From Octopus vulgaris (lineage: Eukaryota), in assembly GCA_951406725.2 (NCBI GenBank), contig OX597824.1:39060001-39124000 (forward strand): a stretch of DNA of 64,000 bases, given 5' to 3'. Position numbers and translations under genes: made by a program. This document shows, one piece after another, positions 31,948-54,250 of the stretch. The first letter of the stretch is position 1. Every line of letters begins with the position of its first letter. Below the pieces are notes generated by a model, which was given only the letters and a program-made list of their open reading frames with translations, was not told the origin of the DNA and did no database searches.

Positions 31948-32570
31948 GATCGTGAGAGAGGAACGAGAAATAAAAAACAGAAGAAAGCTTGGAGCATGTA
32001 GGAAGGAAAAGGTAGGTAATTTAATTAGTAGAACTTTTAAAAATAAGTCCTGTTATGTGTTTTTGGTTTGTTTTTTTTTTAGATAATATAATTTCCATTT
32101 CGACATTTTTAGTGTCATATCATCATAATCATCATCAACATCATCATCATTATTATTATTAATTATTATTACTTATTGTTATTACTATAATCATTCTTAA
32201 TATATTAAAAATTATTTTACCATTATTATTTTCTTCCAAAATATAAATTTTATCTCGTTTTCTTCTGTTGCTATTTTGTGAATGTATATATATGTATATA
32301 TATATTTCTTGAAATATATATATTTTCAAAATCATTTCACCTGGTTTTCATTTCTTTGATTTCTCATTCTGAAATGAATGTTAAATATTTTGTCTTTTTT
32401 TTTTTTTTTTGAAAAATTTGGTTTCCTGAAATAGACATTTTTTAAAAATGATTTTTTGCTTTTCTTCATGTGACTTGTTTTCTTTCTCCCGGTCATTGTG
32501 TAGAACCTTTGTTTTTCCTTATTTAAATATTCCAATATTTGCATTAATTTTCGTTGCTCCTAGCAACCAA

Positions 32571-33500
32571 TTAACCTTCTACTTTCTCTACATTTCGTTT
32601 AACGACGTTTTTACTGATATTTGATGGAACACTTCTTTTACCAACCAATTCTCTGATTCTCTTGTCAAAATGTTCGGCATTTTCACCTTCATTTCCACGT
32701 TTACCAACCAGTTCTCTGATTCTCTTGTCAAAATGTTCAGGATACTCAACTTCAGTTCCTCTTTTACCAATTAATTCTCTAATTCTCTTGTCTGGAAATT
32801 CGATTTCAGTGCCTCGTTTGCCAATTAATTCTCTAATTCTCTTCTCAAAATTTTCAGGATATTCAACTTCGCCTCCTCGTTTACCGATCAATTCTCGGAT
32901 TCTCTTGTCAGGATAATCAATTTCACCTCCACGTTTACCAATCAGTTCCCGAATTCTCTTGTCAGGAAATTCAATTTCTGATCCTCGTTTGCCAACCAAC
33001 TCCCTAATTCTTTTGTCAAAGTGATCAGAATATTCCACATCGTTTCCTCGTTTGCCAACCAATTCTCTAATTCTTTTGTCAAAGTGATCAGGATATTCTA
33101 TTTCGGTCCCACGTTTGCCAACCAATTCTCTAATTCTTTTATCAAAGTGATCGGAATAGTCAATTTCTGTTCCTCGTTTGCCAACCAATTCTCGAATTCT
33201 TTTGTCAAAATTTTCAGGATATCGTTTGCCGACTAATTCTCTAATTCTCTTGTCAAAATGTTCAGGATAGTCAATTTCAATTCCTCGATTAGCAGCCAGT
33301 TCGCGAATGTAATTCTCTGGGCTTTCCATTTCCATGAAACTGTTAACATTTCTTTTTCTTAGCAGGTCTTTTATTCTGTCACCAGACGCCCTAAACCTTT
33401 TGTCAGCATTCGAGTAGCTTTTAAAGTCATGAGTTTCCACAAGCAGTGAAGATGCCAAAACGGCAAGACTTAATTTTAGAATTATTTCATAAGAATGCAT
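32571..33500 (-). CDS. Secreted neuropeptide precursor (309 aa) encoding 7x IRELV-amide and 4x IRELI-amide plus acidic spacer peptides; candidate TRH-like/EFLamide/fulicin-type prohormone
   Basis: ATG at 33500 (MHSYEIILKLSLAVLASSLLVETH, hydrophobic signal-peptide-like). 11 copies of KR-IREL[V/I]-GKR (dibasic cleavage plus Gly amide donor). Repeats differ mostly at synonymous sites. Stop at 32571-32573. Confidence 0.93.
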   Translation of the reverse strand: MHSYEIILKLSLAVLASSLLVETHDFKSYSNADKRFRASGDRIKDLLRKRNVNSFMEMESPENYIRELAANRGIEIDYPEHFDKRIRELVGKRYPENFDKRIRELVGKRGTEIDYSDHFDKRIRELVGKRGTEIEYPDHFDKRIRELVGKRGNDVEYSDHFDKRIRELVGKRGSEIEFPDKRIRELIGKRGGEIDYPDKRIRELIGKRGGEVEYPENFEKRIRELIGKRGTEIEFPDKRIRELIGKRGTEVEYPEHFDKRIRELVGKRGNEGENAEHFDKRIRELVGKRSVPSNISKNVVKRNVEKVEG

Positions 33501-33770
33501 TTCGTTGGTTTGAAGGATAGGGAATTTCAAATCCGTTTCATGCAACAGTCAGTGTCTTTTTATCTCTTTTTCTTTCTTCCTCTAAGGCAAGTTGATAAAA
33601 ATATTAACTTCTGCTGATGCTGTTGCGGTTATCTTTATGTTGCTGCTGATGTACTTGCAGATCGATAAGTTATTAAGATTTCTTCCCTTGTTTTATTTGT
33701 CTCTAAAAGAAATGACCGTGCAGTGAAGGCAATATGCAAGCTGCTGTTAGATAAGTATTGCAGCTTTTAC

Positions 33771-33801
33771 ACTGGATGTTGTAGAAACGCGTGTATTTAT
33801 A
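33771..33801 (-). promoter_or_regulatory. Candidate TATA box plus initiator for the neuropeptide gene
   Basis: Minus strand TATAAATA at 33801-33794 and an Inr-like CCAGT whose A (33773) lies 28 nt downstream, about 270 nt before the ATG. An alternative splice acceptor (TTTCTTTTAG, ~33712-33703) also exists. Confidence 0.4.
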
Positions 33802-33914
33802 AGCAAGAGGTTTGCCCATCTTGCGTAGGATGCATAGGCCTCTCAGCAGGCAGTTTCACTTTTAAGTCCAACCCAAAGCGGCATAATGTTTATCGTTCTT
33901 TTTCTTTTATCGTC

Positions 33915-53399: not shown

Positions 53400-54250
53400 A
53401 AGTTCATACTGATTTTTAGTTTTTGCAGTGTTAACATAAATGGGGTTTCTGGTGCAAGGTTTTTGTGAGGGACTACATCTGACCCAATAATAGCCCAGAC
53501 CTCAATCTTCTCGATTACTTTTTATGAGGCATACTTCAAGCAAGGACCAATGCTTCACAACACTCGAGTGTCAACAGTTTGAAGACCTGCATCGTGCGTG
53601 CGACACACGGAATCAAAGTGGCAGAGATTACGGCAGCTGCAAAACAATTTCTTTCTCATGTAAAGGCAGTAATTGCATGGTTCATGGTCTCAAAAATTTG
53701 TCCTACGAAGAAAGGCTGAGGACGCTCGACCTTTATTCTCTTGAAAAACGCCGCCGCCGTGGTGATCTCATTCTCGTCCACAACATCATAAGCGGGAAGT
53801 GTAACCTCTCGAAAGAGCTGTTCTTCACTCCTGCTCCGGAGCGTCGGCTGCGGGGTCATTCCGAAAAGCTCTACCTGCGACGATTTCATCTCAATCGAAG
53901 GAGAGGAGCTTTCTCCGTCCGGGTTGCGGATCCGTGGAACAAGCTGCCAGACGAGATGGTGAAGATGCCGACGACCGCTTTGTTCAAAGCCTCCCTGGAC
54001 CTCAAGTGGCCTGAACTCTTTACATGAACACCACCCTGTACTTAACTCCATGTCCCCCTACATGGCCTTGCTATTTGCTTTTGAGCCAAATTAACTAACT
54101 AACTAAAAGGGCTGCCATATTGAGTGGAAATAGTTTTGTTGTAATACATGCTACATTAAATTTATATCTGTCTACTACCATTATTTTAGTATCTATAACA
54201 AGTGTTATGCATCGTAAAAGAGTGTTCCAATTTATCTCCAAGACTCTGTG
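53400..54250 (+). mobile_element. Tc1/mariner relic split by a CR1 insertion
   Basis: *PNNSPDLNLLDYFL*GIL at 53480; ...HVKAVIA stops at ~53677 and resumes KGCHIEWK* after ~54106. Confidence 0.65.
53677..54106 (+). mobile_element. CR1-clade LINE, 5'-truncated, young
   Basis: Intact frame LSYEERLRTLDLYSLEKRRRRGDLI...LRGHSEKL...FSVRVADPWNKLP, short 3' UTR and (TAAC)n tail. Confidence 0.88.

Follow-up and report, generated by a model that had tools for sequence, protein, structure and literature searches.

The window analysed here, a stretch of 64,000 nucleotides of the Octopus vulgaris genome, sits on contig C11 of the 2.8-Gb genome and carries on its minus strand a frame open from 33548 to 32571, in which the first ATG lies at 33500 and the stop codon ends at 32571, giving a product of 309 aa. 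The precursor is laid out as a predicted signal peptide, with hydrophobic residues 6-21 (Kyte-Doolittle 9-residue mean up to 2.4), then many pentapeptides placed between dibasic sites with an amide-donor Gly. Eleven KR-IREL[V/I]-GKR cassettes were counted, with the seven IRELV pentapeptides beginning at aa 86, 102, 123, 144, 165, 261 and 282 and the four IRELI pentapeptides at aa 183, 201, 222 and 240. Arg occupies position 2 in 11/11 of these peptides and Leu position 4 in 11/11, with Phe there in 0/11. An earlier sequence-only reading had described a signal-peptide-bearing frame with 11 KR...GKR cassettes, 7 of IRELV and 4 of IRELI, and this was exact, the signal peptide being a prediction from hydropathy. 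The features of the coding sequence, all on the minus strand, are as follows.

32571..33500, minus strand: prepropeptide coding sequence including the stop codon, 309 aa; open reading frame, identical by eye to octopusVulgaris.12157
33435..33500, minus strand: predicted signal peptide, about aa 1-22; from hydropathy, with the same N-terminus in Ocbimv22004644 and a similar one in P0038
32634..33251, minus strand: array of 11 KR-IREL[V/I]-GKR cassettes with acidic spacers (consensus like GTEIEYPDHFD)
32994..33245, minus strand: IRELV cassettes 1-5; peptides 33245-33231, 33197-33183, 33134-33120, 33071-33057 and 33008-32994
32769..32954, minus strand: the four IRELI cassettes; peptides 32954-32940, 32900-32886, 32837-32823 and 32783-32769
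32643..32720, minus strand: the final two IRELV cassettes; peptides 32720-32706 and 32657-32643
33294..33308, minus strand: degenerate copy IRELA, aa 65-69, lacking dibasic flanks and the amide-donor Gly

The cassettes are confined to this gene, with all 11 matches to KR-x(3-10)-GKR in a six-frame reading of the window falling in the precursor frame and no second GKR array found there. With a looser cassette pattern, 0/10,000 shuffles of the protein gave at least 10 matches, the maximum being 9. At the DNA level the units of the array are only 74-79% alike (periods 54 and 63), and of the pairwise codon differences among the 11 ten-codon cassettes 206/234 are synonymous and the V/I change accounts for the remaining 28. 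The mostly synonymous variation points to selection on the peptide, and together with the low identity of the units it argues that the array is not a passive DNA repeat. That a non-coding tandem repeat reads like a precursor by chance has a counterpart in a 39-bp array on C4, which does mimic a GKR precursor, but the synonymous bias of the cassettes, the orthologue in Octopus bimaculoides, the ATG with its hydrophobic leader and the TATA box 31 nt before the likely cDNA 5′ end leave such a reading with a negligible chance of being correct. The octopus locus is a real, selected neuropeptide gene, in which the IRELA copy is likely, from its flanking residues, not to be released as an amide.

A search of the genome with the protein returned three places, one of them a true match. 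The match on C4 (L003) was rejected as a paralogue, being a near-perfect 39-bp array whose changes are non-synonymous. This array (G000:C4:63,825,319-63,825,720; L003 1516-1905) has 10 units with 2 changes, both non-synonymous, and reads SPSKSYSEIIGKR in one frame with other frames open too. It is likely a minisatellite mimicking a precursor and possibly a very young peptide exon.

The coding sequence is covered by contigs of 4/4 sequencing runs without joints, gaps or other letters. These runs were guessed to be RNA and are not so recorded, and since they are represented by contigs (span 32330-33880) their depth is uninformative on expression level; the gene is likely expressed. The following features lie around the coding sequence.

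33501..33770, minus strand: likely 5′ UTR, 270 nt, colinear with the coding sequence, no intron seen
33770, minus strand: likely transcription start, where the X9 contig ends, followed by 24 foreign letters; one contig only
33794..33801, minus strand: TATA box TATAAATA, beginning 31 nt ahead of position 33770
33541-33527, minus strand: out-of-frame uORF of 4 codons, the sole one in the 270-nt leader, its end 26 nt ahead of the main ATG
32020..32025, minus strand: ATTAAA, putative poly(A) signal, the sole such hexamer within 1,070 nt past the stop

The 24-letter tail of the X9 contig is presumably a template-switch cDNA adapter, which it resembles. Other contigs end elsewhere, X5 at 33782 and X13 at 33746, with X1 extending past 33880, such that the start at 33770 is likely rather than shown. 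The absence of joints in the contigs over leader and coding sequence means that the gene appears to have no intron between the start site and the end of the coding sequence, and the 4-codon uORF could tune translation of the main frame. The five further frames of at least 170 aa that the window contains resemble simple repeats or remnants of mobile elements. At 53494-54027 on the plus strand there is an open frame of 177 codons that resembles the C-terminal part of ORF2 from a LINE retrotransposon.

The catalogue entry octopusVulgaris.12157, to which the 309-aa protein is identical, stands in supplements 3 and 4 of a mollusc neuropeptide survey (PMC6425005; De Oliveira et al., 2019), so that the octopus precursor is already known, its sequence having been published since 2019. 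The same survey holds the O. bimaculoides entry Ocbimv22004644, whose 11 cassettes are those of the O. vulgaris precursor in unchanged order, with a few spacer changes. In its file 4 both octopus entries lie between Tpi-LRNFVamide-2 and Tpi-LRNFVamide-1, with Lottia LRNFV, Deroceras fulicin and Deroceras prqfvamide 1 as neighbours (PMC6425005). The survey defines a lumped cluster group 'Fulicin|PRQFV|Enterin|MIP' and terms PRQFVamide a lophotrochozoan family, while passages of its main text leave the IRELV and IRELI peptides unnamed (PMC6425005). A literature search covering journals other than subscription ones found no publication naming IRELVamide among the matches listed; the precursor itself is already catalogued as octopusVulgaris.12157. 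An exact look-up of the protein in a collection of 15 billion sequences found it absent. The ESM Atlas contains the protein letter for letter, but the clusters it offers are generic neuropeptide ones that all score under 0.9 (best 0.87), with pro-TRH at 0.80 and rank 7; this is a lead at most.

Of 8,000 candidates scored in a protein search, 20 were relatives at E<=1e-3. Source names are given for five, all of them unannotated (Bulinus, Lymnaea, Biomphalaria, Sinanodonta and Potamilus). Peptides of the type xR[E/D/Q]F[V/I/L]-G are present in 18/20 relatives and xREL[VIL]-G in 14/20 (12 of the 18 F-type and 2 pure REL-type). Exact R-IREL[VI]-G occurs in 6/20, of which 4, the mixed precursors P0005, P0009, P0010 and P0012, carry IRELV/IRELI beside LRDFV/AREFV copies. 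All 188 pentamers of the 18 F-type relatives have Arg at position 2, a count that is partly circular since sharing words with the query is how the relatives were gathered. At position 4, 159 have Phe and 29 Leu, indicating that the family tolerates Leu there. The cluster of the Biomphalaria relative has 5/14 members named PRQFVamide or protein PRQFV-amide-like. BLASTP of the octopus protein against Biomphalaria XP_013065371.2 gave 41% over 214 columns (E 7e-26), although repeat precursors align via their GKR-KR sites and such E-values overstate orthology.

The Aplysia precursor record (PRQFV_APLCA) lists AREFV, PRQFV, VRDFV, VREFV and IREFV amides, and Aplysia IREFV-amide is one residue apart from octopus IRELV-amide. 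Like the octopus precursor, PRQFV_APLCA and XP_013065371.2 carry multi-copy KR-pentapeptide-GKR units of the form x-R-[E/D/Q]-hydrophobic-[V/I]-amide, whereas the octopus protein has Leu rather than Phe at position 4 throughout, lacks a PRQFV copy, has just two peptide variants and is shorter. The octopus pentapeptide pattern is also seen in Lottia and Theba LRNFVamide, mussel and unnamed LRDFV/IRELV precursors, some with exact IRELV-G and IRELI-G, but there LR[DN]FV copies outnumber the REL-type ones, whereas in octopus all are REL. When a matrix was trained on the F-type relatives with position 4 ignored, IRELV scored 13.5 (as IREFV) against 0.4 for PMEFL, the repeat of a second octopus precursor on C15. 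A genome search with an unnamed LRDFV/IRELV-type relative placed the C11 locus first (58 bits vs 25 for C15), and one with the Bulinus PRQFV precursor gave 48.4 bits to the C15 PMEFL exon as best single stretch and 44.8 to the C11 locus over 5 stretches.

Taken on these sequence comparisons, the octopus gene very probably (about 0.9) belongs to the PRQFVamide/LRNFVamide family of molluscan precursors. A cephalopod precursor of amidated pentapeptides, as first proposed, is supported by the cassettes and by relatives of the family type, with amidation predicted, and the accompanying remark on similarity to LRNFV-amide pointed to the correct family, as seen from the peptides of the relatives and the LRNFVamide neighbours in file 4 (PMC6425005). 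The description of the precursor as 'highly amplified' was not borne out because most relatives have a similar number of cassettes, about 8-14. The boundaries within this group are drawn differently in the literature, with a 'Fulicin-like precursor (LRNFVamide)' separate from PRQFVamide in Biomphalaria (PMC5455113), Sepia PMEFL-amide filed under PRQFV-amide (PMC5736919) and a warning that FV/FL/FI-amides may be phylogenetically mixed (bioRxiv 2021.03.03.433790).

Whether the gene instead represents a new, cephalopod-specific neuropeptide family that came to resemble PRQFV and LRNFV by convergence turns largely on position 4. Leu in all 11 octopus copies set against Phe in most pentamers of the relatives, the missing name in the literature and the fact that only 2/20 relatives (P0001 and P0002) are pure REL-type would fit such a family. 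These two are unnamed, have a leader similar to the octopus one and are likely from another cephalopod. Convergence is nevertheless highly unlikely, given the mixed precursors with both peptide types, the IRELL, QRELV and PRELV peptides of freshwater-mussel relatives and the SRELVamide within the scallop 'LRNFVamide' precursor (PMC5996578). Also against it, two family queries of the genome, which set lower bounds, found no other xR[ED]F[VI] precursor. The preponderance of xR[E/D/Q]F[V/I/L]-amide relatives and the catalogued identical sequence (PMC6425005) likewise tell against the new family that had been offered as one possibility. Membership of the PRQFVamide/LRNFVamide family is most simply expressed as a series within one family, running from PRQFV/IREFV through mixed LRDFV plus IRELV to pure IRELV/IRELI. 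Since RE-L-[VI] copies are a minority in other relatives, the octopus form likely arose by array-wide spread, in which a Leu variant would have replaced Phe at position 4.

The other possibility raised by the sequence-only reading was that of a TRH-type (fulicin/EFLamide) orthologue, whose peptides would serve the TRH-type receptor as its main ligands. The protostome core E-[L/F]-[L/F/V] accommodates IRELV-amide, which has R-E-L in common with the (G/A)(R/N)ELF-amide peptides of Caenorhabditis elegans (PMC8398477), and fulicin is grouped with PRQFV in one published clustering (PMC6425005). The relative P0004 has a sub-threshold Pfam TRH match (22.9 bits vs cut-off 27.8), but for the window protein Pfam gave nothing above cut-off and no TRH hit. 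The core is fitted by 7/11 octopus peptides (ELV) and not by the 4/11 IRELI, and as IREFV of the PRQFV family fits it too, the motif does not discriminate.

The same genome holds a separate EFLamide/fulicin-type gene on C15 (G000:C15:73,232,465-73,239,728, minus strand; L002, L019), with PMEFL and PxF[V/I] frames and synonymous variation among the PMEFL units. Here an AG acceptor precedes an exon encoding 16 x-MEFL-G-KR peptides, and a PxF[VI]-amide (MIP) frame of 1,699 codons with about 110 PxF[VI]-G copies follows 1,259 nt downstream. Oyster fulicin, the molluscan TRH-type peptide, is a splice form of the MIP/PxFVamide gene, likewise in Capitella, and the TRH-type peptides of both animals end in (F/Y)S(E/D)FL-amide (PMC8398477), fulicins being regarded as molluscan TRH-type elsewhere as well (PMC11890989). 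The C15 locus has this oyster layout and is likely, on its sequence, the octopus TRH-type gene, such that the TRH-type slot is likely filled. The fulicin/EFL(G)amide peptides (oyster LOC105328755, octopus C15) share with IRELV/IRELI a C-terminal E-hydrophobic-hydrophobic-amide, but Arg at position 2 is found in 0/17 pentamers of the C15 PMEFL exon and 0/115 of the PxFV exon. The PMEFL exon is tied by its position to the MIP/PxFV exon, whereas the C11 gene stands alone, with no intron in the 4 contigs over its coding sequence and no neighbouring MIP exon in a six-frame pattern search of the window. Orthology of the C11 gene to TRH-type precursors is therefore most improbable. Two sequence-level findings had been named beforehand as counting against the original proposal, an existing catalogue entry and another EFLamide/fulicin-type gene in the genome, and both were made.

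A looser connection to the TRH-type system is doubtful, yet less so than direct orthology. By this account IRELV/IRELI-amide, with REF changed to REL as in nematode GRELF-amide, would be second ligands of the octopus TRH-type receptor or its duplicate, and the PRQFVamide/LRNFVamide family a lophotrochozoan duplicate of fulicin/TRH-type.

In octopus papers the name 'PRQFV' has been given to three different things, which the present analysis separates: the C11 gene for xRE[LF][VI]-amides, the C15 gene for MIP/PMEFL peptides and a qPCR amplicon from an unrelated locus on C29. The 'Ov-PRQFV' qPCR (PMC5736919) was rejected as evidence for the C11 gene, the primers having no match in the window. Both match C29, 160 bp apart (G000:C29:10,641,870-10,642,029; L022 1501-1660), inside a frame of more than 1,000 codons on the opposite strand that contains C2H2 zinc-finger-like motifs but lacks amidated repeats, so that these expression data are irrelevant to the C11 gene. 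They may stem from something other than a PRQFVamide gene, or possibly from a chimeric transcript. A preprint reported prqfv1 and prqfv2 in dopaminergic neurons (bioRxiv 2022.06.11.495763), where the published version has 'pxfv' and 'lxgkr' at the corresponding places (PMC9815951), and prqfva1 was found in dopaminergic neurons of O. vulgaris per the octopus atlas. The name 'lxgkr' fits the L[VI]GKR repeats of the octopus precursor, as it could other precursors, and 'lxgkr' (preprint 'prqfv2') may be the O. bimaculoides orthologue, marking a dopaminergic optic-lobe sublayer. Publications on the optic gland and the peduncle mention a PRQFVamide homologue, with no sequence in the relevant passages.

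Neuropeptide precursors enter the secretory pathway, are cleaved by prohormone convertases at KR, trimmed by carboxypeptidase and amidated by PAM from Gly. On this general biology each octopus precursor molecule would yield 7 IRELV-NH2 and 4 IRELI-NH2, and the acidic spacers between the cassettes would likely be inert. By analogy with the family the amides are likely to act as neuromodulators via a GPCR. In Aplysia, PRQFVamide is reported to suppress contraction of the gut and to make neurons of the feeding circuit less excitable (cited in PMC5736919 and bioRxiv 340984), which makes an inhibitory GPCR neuromodulator the best guess, with the octopus peptides likely, by the same analogy, to be inhibitory on neurons and gut muscle. 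A literature search yielded no publication on a receptor of the PRQFVamide/LRNFVamide family among the matches listed.

As the precursor was in a dataset published in 2019 the gene carries little weight as a discovery, and its annotation value is modest, with a likely promoter and start site added. For the family, IRELV-NH2 and IRELI-NH2 provide two cheap synthetic ligands for seeking its receptor. Should the shared TRH-type origin be true, the family would gain a receptor and octopus would have two TRH-type ligand genes, one of which would possibly mark dopaminergic optic-lobe neurons as the 'lxgkr' marker.
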